This document shows, in pieces, positions 1 to 5,224 of a DNA stretch of 5,224 nucleotides. The stretch is from a virus (taxonomy: Duplodnaviria; Heunggongvirae; Uroviricota; Caudoviricetes): the IMG/VR virus record IMGVR_UViG_3300029476_000065; one strand, 5' to 3'. The translations under genes and the position numbers were made by a program. Numbering within the stretch: position 1 is the first letter of the stretch; each line of letters opens with the position of its first letter. The notes beneath the pieces are model-generated. The model had not been told where the DNA came from, made no database searches, and saw only the letters and a list, made by a program, of their open reading frames with translations.

Positions 1-772
1 CGCGTGCGTCAGCGCCAATGCGATATTCAATCTCTTTGCCACGCTGTTCGGCCTGTAGGCGTGCTAATTCGAGTTTTTCTCTGGCCTCAGCCTCTTTGAA
101 TGCTTGCTGGCGAGCGCTCTGACGAAGCTTTTCATCCCCCTGTCGCAGCTTTTGTTCGGACTGATATATAGCTGCCAACCTACTGATAAAATCATTCATG
201 TAGTAGGCAGCGTCACTGATTAGACCGAGAAGGCGCTGCCCAGGGTGCATTCCTTCTGGCTCTTTATCGCCCAAGGCGTCTATTTCCGCCTGTAGACGTT
301 CGGCCTCCTGATCAACAATGCTTTGATACTGAAGTGCGCGCTCTTGCGCCATTTGAATTGCTAACCGCAGGTGTTCTTCTGCGCCGTTCTTCATCATATC
401 GCGAGCCACATTCGTAGTGGGCAATGTGGCACGCTGCACAGCACCGCCAGGGATCATTGCTGAAGATCCCTCAATTTTTGGGGCGCTTTTATCTTCTTCG
501 GGGATCATTTTCGCCATTTTTTCGCGCAATGATCTCCTGACAGATTCTTTTATCTCATTGTTATTATTTGCATTATTTTCATGATCCGAAGTTTTCTTTC
601 TCGGCATACTTCGGAAAGAACCTGCGCCCTGCGAATTGTCAATTTCTGTAAATTTTGTTTTTTCTGCACCCTCTTCCAGCTTTTTTGTTGCTCTTCCCGC
701 CCGTTTTTTTTCAGGTGATTTGGTGCTTTTTTTTGTTGTCTTTACCTGCGACCGCACCTCATTTTTTTTCAT
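1..772 (-). CDS. Hypothetical protein, partial (3' end beyond window start); lysine-rich low-complexity N-terminal region followed by a coiled-coil-like segment; start codon unresolved
   Basis: The minus-strand frame has no stop from position 1 up to the N run at 810. In-frame ATGs lie at 772, 607, 517, 508, 457, 397/394, 352, 250 and 199, plus an in-frame TTG 4 nt after an AGGAG. Translation from 517 reads MAKMIPEEDKSAPKIEGSS...ERALQYQSIVDQEAERLQAEIDALGDKEPEG...YYMNDFISRLAAIYQSEQKLRQ..., which is protein-like. It is absent from the ORF track only because it is not closed inside the window. Codons 520-772 are K/N/T-rich and could instead be AT-rich leader. Confidence 0.6.
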   Translation of the reverse strand, partial: MKKNEVRSQVKTTKKSTKSPEKKRAGRATKKLEEGAEKTKFTEIDNSQGAGSFRSMPRKKTSDHENNANNNNEIKESVRRSLREKMAKMIPEEDKSAPKIEGSSAMIPGGAVQRATLPTTNVARDMMKNGAEEHLRLAIQMAQERALQYQSIVDQEAERLQAEIDALGDKEPEGMHPGQRLLGLISDAAYYMNDFISRLAAIYQSEQKLRQGDEKLRQSARQQAFKEAEAREKLELARLQAEQRGKEIEYRIGADAR

Positions 773-809
773 ATTGAGATGCTTTCTGGCTGTATTGAAG
801 CTAAGGCCA

Positions 810-850
810 NNNNNNNNNNNNNNNNNNNNNNNNNNNNNNNNNNNNNNNNN
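810..850. other. Run of 41 N (assembly gap or masked bases)
   Basis: Literal n characters at 810-850; flanked on the low side by T homopolymer runs on the plus strand. Confidence 0.99.
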
Positions 851-907
851 CTTTTTCTTCACGCAACGCTATAAAGCGGGCGCGGTGCTCCTCCCAATTA
901 ACCAGAC

Positions 908-1300
908 TCATAAAGCAACACCACGCTTTTTAACGGCGGCATTCCACAGCTTATTCGCCATGTCCACCAGCTCTCGTTGCTCTTTTCGCGCCTGTTCGAC
1001 TGATTTCCTGCTACAGTTTTTAACCAGTAAGCTACCGTATTCAGGCGTGCGCCCGCGCACCTTGAACTGATATCCGTTCAGGCCATGCAACCAGTATTTC
1101 CGTGGGTAAACACGATCATCAAGCTCACAAATAGCTCGGCTTGACCGCACAAAATGCCGAATGATGTTGGTTACACTTACGCGTGAAACATGAAGGTGAG
1201 GATATTTTTCTTTAGCTAGAGTGGTGATTTCGGTGACTGTCAGATAGCAGTCAGCCCTAATCATGATATCCGCAATTTCTGCGCTGCTGATATGCTCCAT
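908..1300 (-). CDS. Hypothetical 130-aa protein, possible winged-helix/HTH DNA-binding regulator
   Basis: Complete ORF with ATG at 1300 and TGA at 908-910; GGGGG purine-rich stretch 4 nt upstream of the ATG. The segment LTVTEITTLAKEKYPHLHVSRVSVTNIIRHF has a helix-turn-helix-like hydrophobic pattern (inference). A 108-bp AT-rich intergenic region lies upstream (1301-1408). Confidence 0.72.
   Translation of the reverse strand: MEHISSAEIADIMIRADCYLTVTEITTLAKEKYPHLHVSRVSVTNIIRHFVRSSRAICELDDRVYPRKYWLHGLNGYQFKVRGRTPEYGSLLVKNCSRKSVEQARKEQRELVDMANKLWNAAVKKRGVAL
964..971 (-). other. Chi octamer (5'-GCTGGTGG-3' on the minus strand)
   Basis: Exact CCACCAGC on the plus strand at 964-971. Confidence 0.5.
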
Positions 1301-1408
1301 TAATCCCCCAGGCAGGAAATGACCGAGGGGATGATAATGAGAATGTTATTTCTGTATAGACTGGCAAAAAGTTGGTTATATTAGAAAATTAATTCCATTC
1401 ATCTAACA

Positions 1409-1801
1409 CTACCAGCGAGATAAGCGAACGACGTGTTTTACCTTAGCGATCCACTTACCACGTGAGTTATTAATTACGGCCTGCGCCACCTTTAAGCTGA
1501 CTTCAAAATCAGCCTTACGACCATCAGAATCCACCAGCGTTGCACCGTCTATTTCCGGCAGGCTTAAATAATCCTGTTCTACCTCTAATGGCATTGACGG
1601 CTCTCTGAATGGTGTCAATTGCCGAGCTTTCCAGATAAAGCGAACTCTCAATCCCCTATAAGCCATTACCATGTAGCCTGTTATCGTGCTCTTATGGCCT
1701 GCATCAGTACGCGCAGCATTACACGATACAATCTTACAGGTGACGATATTCCACTCCACATTGGATACTTCGTGAATGCTTAATTTTGTGGTCTCGTACA
1801 T
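1409..1801 (-). CDS. Hypothetical 130-aa basic protein, downstream member of a translationally coupled pair
   Basis: ATG at 1799-1801 shares one nucleotide with the TGA stop (1801-1803) of the upstream gene. GGGAGG Shine-Dalgarno 7 nt upstream of the ATG. Stop TAG at 1409-1411. By my count K+R exceeds D+E. No recognisable motif. Confidence 0.75.
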   Translation of the reverse strand: MYETTKLSIHEVSNVEWNIVTCKIVSCNAARTDAGHKSTITGYMVMAYRGLRVRFIWKARQLTPFREPSMPLEVEQDYLSLPEIDGATLVDSDGRKADFEVSLKVAQAVINNSRGKWIAKVKHVVRLSRW

Positions 1802-2376
1802 CAGAATGCCTCCCAGTCAGTCGCGATAATATCCACGCCAGTGGCGAACCAGTCTGTCTGTGCCTGTAAGTCTCCATTCATCATTACCAGCCGAGGCATA
1901 ACCATCACATCGCACCCTTCCACAATATCGAATGCTTCTTCCGGCAGGAATTCGACGAGCTTTTCTTTGCTGCCTATACTGCCACGGAACATCGACATAT
2001 AGCTCCCTTTAGGCCATGATGCCCGGCGGGCGTCAAGCCCCTTCATCATCCAGAACACGGCGGCAGAAAAATTGATGTTCTTTTTGGCGATGAAAACATT
2101 ATTGGCTTCTGTTTGCTTCAGAAACTTAATTAGCCTTGCCATCGACTCTGATAACGCTACGTATGGCTCATGATTGGCTGCGGACACGCTCACACCATGT
2201 AATCCAACACTGACTACCGTCATATCGCCGCTTTGAGCGGTTTCAATGTTGACACCTTTGCGAACTAACGAGGCATAAAGTTCCTCTCGCTTTTGTGTCC
2301 AGCGTTCCCGCTGACCGATGAAGTCACTCAATATGAGATCTGCTTCTGCATACGCGTTATCGTTCGCCGTTAACAT
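1801..2376 (-). CDS. Hypothetical 191-aa acidic protein, upstream member of a translationally coupled pair
   Basis: ATG at 2374-2376 preceded by AAAAAGGAG with 5-nt spacing. Uninterrupted 191 codons. Stop overlaps the start of the next gene. By my count D+E exceeds K+R. No family recognised by eye. Confidence 0.8.
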   Translation of the reverse strand: MLTANDNAYAEADLILSDFIGQRERWTQKREELYASLVRKGVNIETAQSGDMTVVSVGLHGVSVSAANHEPYVALSESMARLIKFLKQTEANNVFIAKKNINFSAAVFWMMKGLDARRASWPKGSYMSMFRGSIGSKEKLVEFLPEEAFDIVEGCDVMVMPRLVMMNGDLQAQTDWFATGVDIIATDWEAF

Positions 2377-2829
2377 AACGTCTCCTTTTTACACGCGCGA
2401 CCATCCCTCGGTTAAACCGATAGAGATGTCGAAACTTCGTATTAATTAAGGGTTACAGCCTGAGCGGCTATATGATGAATTGAAAGGAGTTGTGGCGGTG
2501 GTGCCTCCACCTGCCAGGTTAGCCACTCCTGGCGACGTCACTTATCAGAACGTAGTGAATGAAAATGGCTTCGTCACGAGCGCATAGCCGCAATTACCAC
2601 AACGGAAACGGCGCTCACGCTAATTAAACGCCTTTTCCTGTTGTGCGCCGTACTCTTCCGGCTGTCACACCGAATCGCCAGGATGGTGAGTCCTCGGTCC
2701 GACGATATGAACGGGGCTTGCACATTCCGGCTACCTGGTTTGTTGCCTGAGCTAGGGGAAAAGGTAACCCCTTTAACGTCACCAGACCGCTAACGACGCA
2801 TGTGCCATACGCCGTGTTACAACCAAATA

Positions 2830-4431: not shown

Positions 4432-4507
4432 TGGTGCCGGTTAACGGACTCGAACCGCTGACATCCTGCTTACAAGGCAGGCACTCTACCAACTGAGCTA
4501 AACCGGC
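4432..4507 (-). tRNA. tRNA-Thr (anticodon UGU)
   Basis: Reverse complement GCCGGTTTAGCTCAGTTGGTAGAGTGCCTGCCTTGTAAGCAGGATGTCAGCGGTTCGAGTCCGTTAACCGGCACCA (76 nt). All four stems pair, anticodon loop CTTGTAA, T loop TTCGAGT, encoded CCA. Confidence 0.9.
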
Positions 4508-4511
4508 AATT

Positions 4512-4598
4512 TGGTGGGGAGTGATGGAGTCGAACCACCCGAGTCGCAATGACAGTAGATTTACAGTCTCCCCCGCTACCTCTACGGACTAACTCCCC
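4512..4598 (-). tRNA. tRNA-Tyr (anticodon GUA)-like type II gene with imperfect anticodon and D stems; possible pseudogene
   Basis: 87-nt reverse complement with acceptor GGGGAGT/ACTCCCC, T arm GGTGG-TTCGACT-CCATC, anticodon loop CTGTAAA, long variable arm, discriminator A and CCA. The anticodon stem has a G-A mismatch and the D stem needs a G-U pair and a 3-nt linker. Confidence 0.5.
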
Positions 4599-4603
4599 TA
4601 AAT

Positions 4604-4678
4604 TGGCGATGGTGGGTGGATTCGAACCACCGACCAGTTGGTTAACAGCCAACTGCTCTACCGCTGAGCTACACCATC
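4604..4678 (-). tRNA. tRNA-Asn (anticodon GUU)
   Basis: Reverse complement GATGGTGTAGCTCAGCGGTAGAGCAGTTGGCTGTTAACCAACTGGTCGGTGGTTCGAATCCACCCACCATCGCCA (75 nt). Perfect cloverleaf, anticodon loop CTGTTAA, encoded CCA. Acceptor stem differs from the host-type Asn tRNA as I recall it, consistent with an element-encoded copy. Confidence 0.9.
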
Positions 4679-5126
4679 ACTTGCCGGGTACGTCTCCGGC
4701 GAGGGCTTCCACCTCCGTATGCTTTTCGGCGCACCGCGCCCTGGTTGCAATTCGGTAACAGGGGATGCATAACCCTGGCTTCCAGCGTGATTAGCGCCTT
4801 CAGCATGACGGGATATACCCGTAGTAGGATGTTATCCCAGAAAGCCATTAATCAATGGCTGTTACGCGGGAGGGACGTAACAGGTAAGGGCGCTGACCAG
4901 AAAGACCTGACCCTTCTCATTCATCTGGTTAATCACACCAGCGCCCTTGCCTGTTATGCCTCCCCGTTCCCTAATACACAGACGGGGACACTCTGCGGTC
5001 GATTTTTTGACGGGGGACGACTCATACCCCGTGGCGTCAGGCTTCTTAGGCCGCTACCATCATCAGATCATCGTTTGCATTTACTTTAATGGTCGGGTTC
5101 TAAACCGCCGCAAAGTCGCTAACCAT

Positions 5127-5162
5127 GACGAAAACCCTAAAAAAGCCCACCCGAAGATGGGC
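5127..5162 (-). terminator. Rho-independent terminator for minus-strand transcription
   Basis: Minus-strand RNA GCCCAUC-UUCG-GGUGGGC (7-bp stem including one G-U, UUCG tetraloop; 5145-5162) followed directly by UUUUUUAGGGUUUU. On the plus strand the same hairpin has a mismatch and no U tract, so it is unidirectional. Confidence 0.6.
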
Positions 5163-5224
5163 AAATACGCTACATCTCACACAAGAAAGAAGCCGACTGC
5201 CTGAGCTGGATTCACTTTCAAATG

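Follow-up and report, generated by a model that had tools for sequence, protein, structure and literature searches.

A viral DNA segment placed in the D6 lineage of P1-family phage-plasmids, with a mosaic tRNA and cargo slot

To which member of the P1 family of phage-plasmids does a segment belong when its tRNA and tci genes resemble those of P1, and what would so small a set of tRNAs be kept for? The question was raised by a stretch of 5,224 nucleotides (the window, meaning here the whole stretch that was analysed) from the IMG/VR virus record IMGVR_UViG_3300029476_000065 (Caudoviricetes). An initial annotation had likened it to the tci/tRNA region of P1-family phage-plasmids and had proposed its tRNA-Tyr, its tRNA-Ser and a gene pair at 1409-2376 as lineage-specific additions. 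As judged from sequence comparison, the window is most probably an ordinary, already-described segment of a D6-like (P1-family) phage-plasmid of Escherichia coli and its relatives (probability about 0.85). Best matches were all to P1-family phage-plasmids, so the family had been named correctly; the lineage, as placed by sequence comparison, is that of D6 and not that of Punavirus P1/P7.

Phage D6 covered 97% of the window at 94.5% identity and was the sole full-length match among 50,697 phage records (megablast). The window was collinear with D6 3264-8396, running through pacA, lpa, orf5, orf6, tciB and tciA and then the Ser, Thr and Asn tRNAs. Coverage of 80% or more of the window was reached by 102 plasmids of PLSDB, nearly all about 90 kb long, non-mobilizable and from E. 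coli, Shigella or Salmonella, with Shigella flexneri CP058787 as the best match (97.9%), and at least 80% of it was present in 74 of 5,426 RefSeq complete E. coli genomes, on plasmids. The ENA scaffold ROBE23-1..scaffold_96 (L022; 90,834 bp) matched positions 1-809 at 100% and 851-5224 at 99.77%, and carried the same five tRNAs. All full-length relatives were either plasmids of 75-94 kb or phage D6.

The gene neighbourhood gave the same placement. Exact copies of a 191-aa protein encoded in the window, the larger member of the gene pair, were present in 466 public-assembly blocks whose contigs reached 92 kb, and contigs of 75-92 kb carrying it showed the order darB-ulx-pmgS-tRNA slot-Tad2-like-130aa-lpa-pacA-pacB-c1-cre. 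The D6-like context, with pmgS before the module and orf6-orf5-lpa-pacA-pacB-c1 after it, was thereby recovered; pmgS, pacB and c1 themselves lie beyond the window ends. The region is already known as an accessory and regulatory module, with near-identical public copies and every gene annotated in current RefSeq. The element would be a P1-family temperate myovirus kept as a circular plasmid of about 90 kb in E. coli, Shigella and Salmonella, in which, along the minus strand, the accessory tRNA/tci module would run into the regulatory and packaging region.

P1 and P7 matched only the tRNA/tci module (2644-5165), at about 91-92% DNA identity (blastn), the P7 match being made of a contiguous block at 2644-4537 (85.7%) and a second one at 4602-5165 (90%). 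No DNA match in P1 or P7 was obtained by blastn for positions 1-2643 and 5166-5224, both of which matched D6. Synteny downstream of the tRNA-Ile gene, which had been proposed as a check against P1, was conserved with D6 and broken with P1/P7: in the latter, tRNA-Ile is followed by ban-dbn, while in the window and in D6 it is followed by the gene pair and then by lpa-pacA. In P1/P7 the tRNA/tci block is bounded by dmt and ban and follows the C1-controlled ban promoter/operator; the lpa-pacA genes of these phages are about 20 kb away, adjoining pdcB. The arrangement of Punavirus sensu stricto (dmt upstream of the module, ban-dbn downstream) was not found in the window.

An origin from P1 or P7 itself, as a comparison with reference P1 would imply, agrees with the 2644-5165 block, which shows 90-96% identity and the same Asn-Thr...tciB-tciC-Ile order. 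It was ruled out by the flanks, which had no DNA match to either phage and different neighbours, and which encoded a diverged Lpa (31% identical to P1 Lpa) and a PacA whose N-terminal part showed no significant similarity to P1 PacA and was unalignable to it. These flanks are so deeply diverged that the window was assigned to the D6 lineage rather than to Punavirus, and an origin from P1 or P7 was considered highly improbable. Within the common block, P7 displayed the closer Punavirus arrangement (Asn-Thr-Ser-terB-tciB-tciC-Ile).

Membership of a chromosomal lambdoid prophage or tRNA island was weighed as well. Two short pieces of the window (3983-4128 and 2653-2828) matched lambdoid phages such as mEp460, and the window holds an STnc100-like element, such as lambdoid prophages typically carry. 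Match coverage ruled this origin out, with next to no probability left to it: full-length matches were all non-mobilizable circular plasmids of about 90 kb or phage D6, and chromosomal matches spanned tRNA-sized fragments alone. No unrelated chromosome or phage appeared among the best matches in the searches of the phage records and PLSDB. The D6-like reading of the window was therefore retained, and its features are collected in Table 1.

Table 1. Features located in the 5,224-nt window, listed from its left end; candidate and inferred features are worded as such
Feature	Position	Strand	Basis or remark
5' part of pacA (pacase/terminase subunit A)	1..911	-	PHROG 1711 'terminase', E 2.2e-87; runs off left end
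Five-GATC cluster inside pacA, candidate pac (packaging cleavage) site, inferred	452..587		GATC at 452, 465, 503, 531, 583
Run of 41 N (mask or gap)	810..850		replaces 31 real bases
lpa, late-promoter activating protein (130 aa)	908..1300	-	Pfam PF25716 BPP1_LPA, 190.8 bits, E 1.4e-56, residues 1-129; PHROG 1704, E 7.6e-60
Chi GCTGGTGG, inside lpa	964..971	-
Candidate early lpa promoter TATACA-16-TATCAT	1358-1331	-	promoter scan; inferred, low confidence
Candidate D6-type C1 operator TTTTCTAATATAA	1388-1376	-	inferred, low confidence
130-aa protein (D6 orf5), function unassigned	1409..1801	-	PHROG 7004; start overlaps upstream gene's stop by one base
Chi GCTGGTGG, inside 130-aa gene	1531..1538	-
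191-aa two-domain protein (D6 orf6)	1801..2376	-	N-terminal domain of about 90 aa and C-terminal Tad2-like (DUF2829) domain
tRNA/tci module, block common to Punavirus P1/P7 at the DNA level	2644..5165		blastn against P1, P7, D6 and other loci; flanks D6-lineage specific
tRNA-Ile2 (anticodon CAU)	2830..2905	-	ARAGORN; Rfam tRNA 66.2 bits
tciC-like 37-aa single-pass membrane peptide	2915..3028	-	read from sequence; start overlaps tciB stop
tciB (DUF3927 small membrane protein, 54 aa)	3025..3189	-	Pfam PF13064, E 1.6e-18; PHROG 1470
Chi GCTGGTGG, inside tciB	3129..3136	-
tciA (TerB-family, 144 aa)	3189..3623	-	Pfam PF05099, 54.1 bits against cut-off 24.4, E 2.3e-14
STnc100-like leader or small RNA element upstream of tciA	3661..3781	-	Rfam RF02076, 39.4 bits
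tRNA-Ser (anticodon UGA), long variable arm, atypical D arm	3891..3977	-	ARAGORN
tRNA-Thr (anticodon UGU)	4432..4507	-	ARAGORN; Rfam 72.5 bits
tRNA-Tyr (anticodon GUA) cassette, between Asn and Thr	4512..4598	-	ARAGORN; Rfam 35.1 bits
tRNA-Asn (anticodon GUU), 75-nt allele	4604..4678	-	ARAGORN; Rfam tRNA 75.5 bits
Terminator-like hairpin and T-run (GCCCATCTTCGGGTGGGCTTTTTT)	5140..5162	-	terminator scan; upstream edge of P1-homologous block

Five tRNA genes, all on the minus strand, were called by ARAGORN and scored a second time with Rfam models. Along that strand the order was tRNA-Asn, tRNA-Tyr, tRNA-Thr, tRNA-Ser, tciA/tciB/tciC-like, tRNA-Ile2 (CAU), the 191-aa and 130-aa genes, lpa and the 5' part of pacA. 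The order tRNA-Asn, tRNA-Thr, TerB-like operon, tRNA-Ile(CAU) expected beforehand was confirmed by ARAGORN, open reading frames (ORFs) and profile searches, and is as annotated in P1. The near-exclusive use of one strand also held, all 12 identified genes lying on the minus strand and covering 65% of the window. The first reading had passed over the left 1300 bases (lpa and the 5' part of pacA), the run of N, and the presence of tRNA-Ser in P7 and D6.

The window tRNAs retained intact cloverleaves, identity elements and encoded CCA ends. The tRNA-Asn was 74/75 identical to that of Ro157c2YLVW and 68/76 to the P1/P7/D6 allele, and the tRNA-Thr was 74-75/76 identical to those of P1, D6 and P7 and 60/76 to K-12 thrU. 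The tRNA-Ser was 87/87 identical to an unannotated P7 copy and 86/87 to the D6 one, and was related to the Ser tRNA of the rV5-like phage phita32. The tRNA with the CAU anticodon matched E. coli K-12 ileX at 69 of 76 positions and P1 trnI at 75 of 76; its anticodon sits on an ileX-like body and not on a Met/fMet body, and matching records were annotated as tRNA-Ile by the Prokaryotic Genome Annotation Pipeline. From its sequence it is assigned as tRNA-Ile2, reading AUA after a predicted lysidine modification.

Two of the tRNAs were less regular. The best Rfam match of tRNA-Ser was the tRNA-Sec model (43.5 bits, below threshold), and tRNA-Tyr carried G28 opposite A42, an anticodon-stem mismatch where most of the 244 plasmid copies have U28; both weigh against reading the whole array as a working set. 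Its presence in four complete plasmids and in L022 as well showed the G28-A42 variant to be real and no sequencing error.

The tRNA/cargo block, compared across elements, was a recombination-prone slot common to the P1 and D6 lineages, of which the window is one combination. The first tRNA was either Asn or Arg(UCU), Tyr and Ser were each present or absent, and the cargo was TerB/DUF3927, SPFH or plp/upl. In transcription order, the array was Asn-Thr-(plp/upl)-tci-Ile in P1, Asn-Thr-Ser-tci-Ile in P7, D6 and CP058787, and Asn-Tyr-Thr-(SPFH)-Ile in the P1-type elements Ro157c2YLVW and NZ_CP149562. Among D6-type elements it was Asn-Thr-(Band_7/SPFH)-Ile in L021 and L023, Arg(UCU)-Tyr-Thr-Ser-tci-Ile in L007-9, Arg-Thr-Ser-...-Ile in L024, and Asn-Tyr-Thr-Ser-tci-Ile in the window and L022.

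Since Ser was found in P7 and D6, and Tyr in plasmids of both lineages, neither is lineage-specific, and their distribution identifies them as variable cassettes swapped across lineages. The earlier proposal of additions thus held for the gene pair, which was specific to the D6 lineage, and failed for the two tRNAs. From the arrays compared, tRNA-Ser is not an addition in the lineage of the window; P1 is the one without it. The tRNA-Tyr gene was present in Ro157c2YLVW, L007-9, L022 and 244 PLSDB plasmids of both lineages, and was absent from the P1, P7, D6 and CP058787 arrays in the tRNA comparison. A 33-mer specific to this gene had no match in the genome_contigs set and two matches, both P1-type, in IMG/VR. 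The Asn-Tyr-Thr stretch of the window was 100% identical in four P1-type E. coli RefSeq plasmids, where it is flanked by dmt and dnaB. A further sign of mosaicism was that TciA was 142/144 identical to its P7 counterpart but TciB only 36/54.

Annotation gaps in the reference records bear on this comparison. The tRNA-Ser of P7 (NC_050152, 6239-6325) was unannotated, as were tRNA-Ile(CAU) (6084-6159) and the tciC-like ORF (6162-6280) of D6 (NC_050154), whose three annotated tRNAs were on the wrong strand. A comparison made from annotations only would wrongly label Ser an 'extra' tRNA.

Further variation was observed at both the tRNA and the cargo positions. Arg(UCU) replaced Asn(GUU) as the first tRNA in sister D6-like plasmids (L007 5058-5134, L008, L009, and L024 8323-8399); compared with the window tRNA-Asn, its acceptor stem and T arm were identical, and the two differed in the D loop (A at the Arg identity position A20) and in the anticodon arm. 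From sequence, the pair looks like a case of tRNA remoulding or arm swapping. The slot between Thr and Ile, on D6-type and P1-type backbones alike, held either the TerB/DUF3927/tciC trio or a 275-aa SPFH (Band_7) gene (L021 8490-9317, L023 8491-9318, L018 6719-7546, against 2915-3644 in the window), and plp/upl in P1. Sequences adjoining tRNA-Ser and tRNA-Ile were also seen in the lambdoid mEp460: its positions 2501-2646 carry the 146 nt just upstream of Ser (window 3983-4128) at 97% identity, and 2710-2884 match the 176 nt just downstream of Ile (window 2653-2828) at 80%, the two pieces adjoining in permuted order. No tRNA genes were annotated in the 5.4-kb stretch of mEp460 that was examined.

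The tRNAs themselves were 97-100% conserved between elements whose proteins had diverged to about 30%, which argues for recent exchange of the block, purifying selection on the tRNAs, or both. One could suppose that the tRNA genes have little selected translational role and persist mainly as conserved recombination anchors for cargo swapping. In both lineages the cargo and the set of tRNAs do vary while the flanking tRNAs are conserved, the acceptor stem and T arm are the same in the Asn and Arg(UCU) versions, rV5-like virulent phages also have the Tyr and Ser tRNAs (83-92% identical to those of phita32), and mEp460 has the sequences flanking Ser and Ile. This explanation was judged quite improbable: the tRNAs keep their cloverleaves, identity elements and CCA ends, their conservation against about 30% protein identity indicates purifying selection, and their anticodons match the most enriched codons of the phage. 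Anchor and translational roles are, moreover, not mutually exclusive. The module offers a compact natural case in which cargo flanked by tRNAs is exchanged between elements of P1 type and D6 type; such elements are frequent among clinical E. coli, Shigella and Salmonella.

Codon supply, the classical explanation for such an array, fitted the sequence data well. When 46 annotated D6 coding sequences (14,443 codons) were compared with 48 K-12 coding sequences (14,426 codons), the codons most enriched in D6 were AGG (6.3x), AGA (5.4x), ATA (4.7x), ACA (3.8x), CGA (2.6x), TCA (2.5x), AAG (2.4x) and AAT (2.0x). Six of these eight (AGG, AGA, ATA, ACA, TCA and AAT) are read by five anticodon types of the array variants: CAU, as lysidine, reads AUA; UGU reads ACA; UGA reads UCA; GUU reads AAU and AAC; and UCU, in sister elements, reads AGA and AGG. 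In the proposed scheme, transcription of the tRNA/tci block would start at an early-operon promoter situated upstream, beyond the window; the operon would be C1-repressed by analogy with P1/P7, and the tRNAs would be cut out of its transcript. They would supply decoding for AUA, ACA, UCA and AAU, codons of the A/T-richer phage genes that are far commoner there than in host genes, and the Arg UCU tRNA of the sister elements would cover AGA/AGG.

Two points weigh against this scheme. Tyr codons were not enriched in D6 genes (TAT 1.3x, TAC 0.97x), and codon supply therefore leaves the Tyr cassette unexplained. The promoter of the tRNA block lies beyond the window and a strong terminator-like hairpin (5162-5140) stands upstream of the tRNAs, so that read-through from an upstream promoter is an assumption.

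The unexplained Tyr cassette gives room to a different account, in which the tRNAs are mainly counter-defence tools, acting as nuclease-insensitive replacements or decoys and forming an anti-defence island with the Tad2-like gene. The E. coli tRNAs Lys(UUU), Thr(UGU) and Asn(GUU) are substrates of the AriB nuclease of PARIS, which cleaves them at U36AAUC↓A/C41; U39A abolishes cleavage, and T5 variants of the AriB-cut tRNAs rescue infection (PMC12409363). The retron-Eco7 effector PtuAB degrades tRNA-Tyr, and T5 tRNA-Tyr rescues infection (PMC11555353). The window Thr, like the P1-family Thr in general, has G39 and the window Asn C39, against U39 in K-12 thrU and asnT; Thr and Asn form the invariant adjacent core of the array; Tyr is the sole tRNA in the window that codon usage leaves unexplained; and the tRNA-Ile gene is followed, 450 bp on, by the Tad2-like gene.

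Several observations pull the other way. The main AriB target, tRNA-Lys(UUU), was in none of the arrays examined, and the P1/P7/D6 Asn allele retains U39-C40-A41 (UAAUCA), an ideal AriB site. The 31-39 pair is a variable base pair in tRNAs generally, AriB needs determinants outside the anticodon stem too, and codon enrichment already explains Ile2, Thr, Ser, Asn and the Arg variant. A mainly counter-defensive function was regarded as possible but rather unlikely, and a counter-defence role would in any case be compatible with codon supply. In its broadest and speculative form, rated unlikely, the whole block from tRNA-Asn to the 130-aa gene would be an anti-defence island of P1/D6 phage-plasmids. 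Its Asn(GUU)-Thr(UGU) core might stand in for AriB-cut host tRNAs and its Tyr might counter tRNA-Tyr nucleases, the Tad2-like protein and its coupled orphan might sequester a TIR-derived signal, and the tRNA-flanked slot might swap counter-measures between lineages. The overlap of the Asn/Thr/Tyr set with known targets of tRNA-cutting defences offers a testable idea for why temperate phage-plasmids retain a few tRNAs.

The gene pair downstream of tRNA-Ile was recovered as two ORFs exactly where it had been placed (1801-2376 and 1409-1801) and, from its matches, is a D6-lineage-specific Tad2-like module. The C-terminal part of the 191-aa protein matched Pfam PF11195 (37.7 bits against a cut-off of 25, E 3e-9) over residues 102-190 and profile positions 2-72 of 73. 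Its sole PDB sequence matches were the Tad2 proteins SptTad2 (8wjd) and SPO1 gp34.65 (8sme), end-to-end and weak (E 0.08-0.5). In these weak PDB alignments, W121, W176 and D182 aligned with the SPO1 Tad2 ligand residues W25, W73 and D79, and they were invariant in 16 homologues. The RefSeq name is 'Thoeris anti-defense Tad2 family protein', and the probable role of the protein is to bind, and so sequester, a nucleotide immune signal belonging to the glyco-cyclic ADP-ribose (gcADPR) class.

Some features of the protein speak against a simple Tad2 function. SPO1 Tad2 N26 aligned with P122, characterised Tad2 proteins (about 90-100 aa) are single-domain and have no counterpart of its extra N-terminal domain, and the Tad2-like half of its AlphaFold 2 (AF2) model had a predicted local distance difference test score (pLDDT) below 50. 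The N-terminal 90 residues or so were confidently modelled as an alpha-alpha-beta3-alpha domain. Foldseek searches with the AF2 model returned matches from this N-terminal domain alone, none of them significant; a dsRBD-like alpha-beta3-alpha fold was considered for it and not interpreted, the matches being non-significant (best E 0.01).

The 191-aa protein was found solely in D6 when the 50,697 phage records were searched by tblastn. Distant relatives (42-46% identity) occurred on other contigs of about 86-90 kb, and a single-domain relative of 112 aa was found in Raoultella (P0025). According to a 2025 preprint (10.1101/2025.09.12.675607), 93% of the D6-like phage-plasmids and 56% of the P1-like ones have Tad2/AcrIIA7 matches. 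D6-type backbones (L021-L024, about 18212-18874) carried another gene for a Tad2-like protein (PF11195), 146 or 220 aa long, about 8 kb past the left end of the window; it adjoins a dUTPase gene, and D6-type elements therefore hold two DUF2829 proteins.

The 130-aa partner showed no Pfam, NCBIfam or PDB sequence match and had 13 relatives among 1.84 billion representatives. Its AF2 model (pLDDT 66) was beta-rich and gave no PDB fold match at E<=0.001. Weak sequence matches to fn3-repeat and PD40 proteins were set aside, as they look like chance or composition.

The TerB/tci trio was nearly invariant between the window and D6. TciA was identical to D6 at 144/144 residues and to P1 TciA at 43/144; its likely start is the second ATG at 3623, after GAGG, the mechanical ORF reaching 3644, and its 144-aa length is as annotated in D6 and P7. 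TciB was identical to D6 at 54/54 and to P1 at 33/54. The tciC-like peptide was 36/37 identical to an unannotated D6 ORF and 10/37 to P1/P7 TciC, with the same position and architecture. The three genes would be translationally coupled. In the P1 record the TerB trio bears its name 'by homology', which counts against assigning it a role; the ter operon has been noted as incomplete (PMC6799933).

The left part of the window encodes regulatory and packaging functions, Lpa being the protein that would switch on late genes including pacA/pacB. About 300 first codons of pacA lie in the window; its ATG (911-909) overlaps the lpa stop, and the gene is named 'DNA pacase A subunit' in D6-like plasmids. 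At the run of N, D6, CP058787 and L022 all have 31 nt (GGATCACTGTAAAGGAATACTGTGAGGAGCA in D6 and CP058787), with which the pacA frame is intact, and the apparent frameshift is therefore an artefact of the length-changing run. In P1 the pac site, made up of TGATCA/G hexamers, is found about as deep inside pacA; by this analogy, the pac site probably falls within the 5' part of the pacA gene in the window.

The Chi enrichment noted earlier was real, but is a property of the whole genome, of which three sites are a modest local sample. All three GCTGGTGG sites are on the minus strand, against 0.18 expected, and none of 200 shuffles reached three. Chi sites numbered 0.57 per kb here, compared with 0.46 per kb over 50 kb of D6 and 0.20 per kb over a K-12 stretch of 50 kb.

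Regulatory sites were searched for in the non-coding parts. A TTTTCTAAYAYAA motif closely preceded c1, lpa and pmgS in D6 and also occurred beside immI/repL (196-208, 4629-4641, 10322-10334 and 21267-21279), its 4 matches against 1.8 expected not being significant by themselves. The TTTTCTAATATAA/TTTTCTAAYAYAA motif may be a D6-type C1 operator, as a weak candidate. Searched with the P1 C1 operator consensus ATTGCTCTAATAAATTT and up to 3 mismatches, the window and 14 kb of D6 yielded no site.

The match to STnc100 was below the gathering score of 47 and spanned model positions 31-147 of 206; STnc100/PasD-type small RNAs (sRNAs) are known lambdoid-prophage markers (10.64898/2026.05.13.724894). 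A core of about 35 nt at the start of this element (AGTGCTCTTACCATTGCGGTGAATGCG...) was present in four intergenic copies, at 2589-2615, 3769-3795, 4102-4128 and 4335-4361 (family D2). Copies 1 and 2, which precede the 191-aa gene and tciA respectively, also carry a downstream GGAGGCACC. No larger repeats were found when the four intergenic regions were compared with themselves by self-blast, which gave this core and two long imperfect hairpins only. One hairpin lies between tRNA-Thr and tRNA-Ser (4108-4207; 23-nt arms, 91% complementarity) and the other in the leader upstream of tRNA-Asn (4869-4965; 27-nt arms, 81% complementarity). The latter was considered as a conserved structure and rejected, since substitutions between P1 and the window, inspected by eye, do not preserve pairing.

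The terminator-like hairpin 5162-5140 falls within the 'dicF-like region' annotated in P1, of which only the terminator part is kept in the window; no Rfam match to DicF at E<=1 was obtained in the window or in D6 7800-9200. Past the right end of the window, D6 8400-9085 is a non-coding stretch of about 700 nt between pmgS and the window, ending at this hairpin. It carries a promoter-like TTGATT-17-TAGAAT (9050-9022), gave no Rfam family match, and may be a long leader or sRNA.

Beyond correct annotation the region matters little, since both the accessory module and the phage-plasmid family to which it belongs are well known, and its place is best seen by comparison with named systems. In D6 (NC_050154 / MF356679) and D6-like prophages such as pYU39_89, the whole window is collinear and the TciA and TciB proteins are 100% identical. 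D6-like plasmids have been published with Asn, Thr, Ser and Met(CAU) tRNAs and with tciA/tciB as cargo (PMC6799933). Compared with D6, the window has an extra tRNA-Tyr and a 75-nt instead of a 76-nt Asn allele, at a DNA identity of about 92-96%. P7 shares the Asn-Thr-Ser-terB-tciB-tciC-Ile order, with TerB at 142/144 and the Ser tRNA at 87/87; in contrast to the window, it has no Tyr, dmt is accompanied by dam upstream, ban-glt lies downstream, and TciB (36/54) and TciC (10/37) are divergent.

The P1 ban operon region (trnA-trnT-plp/upl-tciA-tciB-tciC-trnI-ban) resembles the window in having Asn and Thr, then tciABC and tRNA-Ile2, on one strand. The two also share, at about 90% conservation, a leader of about 490 nt from the terminator-like hairpin to tRNA-Asn, and the P1 genome is Chi-rich as well. 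Unlike the window, P1 has plp/upl on the opposite strand at the Ser position, a TciA allele 30% identical, no Tyr, and ban-dbn after tRNA-Ile. Ro157c2YLVW (vB_EcoM) and P1-type plasmids such as NZ_CP149562 share the Asn(75 nt)-Tyr-Thr block, but carry an SPFH/Band_7 gene in the Thr-Ile slot in place of Ser and tci, on a Punavirus backbone (dmt ... dnaB/ban).

The C-terminal 90 residues of the 191-aa protein resemble the Tad2 sponges (SPO1 gp34.65, SptTad2) over the whole PF11195 profile, with the putative counterparts of W25, W73 and D79 kept; the protein differs from them in being twice as long, with its extra N-terminal domain, in the replacement of N26 by Pro, and in its coupling to the 130-aa orphan. 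Among virulent phages, phita32 has the same Arg-Tyr adjacency as the sister D6-like plasmids, with a 4-5-nt spacer, and the Thr, Asn and Tyr tRNAs of T5 have been shown to play anti-PARIS or anti-retron roles (PMC12409363, PMC11555353). Any such role of the present array would be putative; unlike the phita32 and T5 arrays, it has no tRNA-Lys and belongs to a temperate phage-plasmid with three to five tRNAs only.

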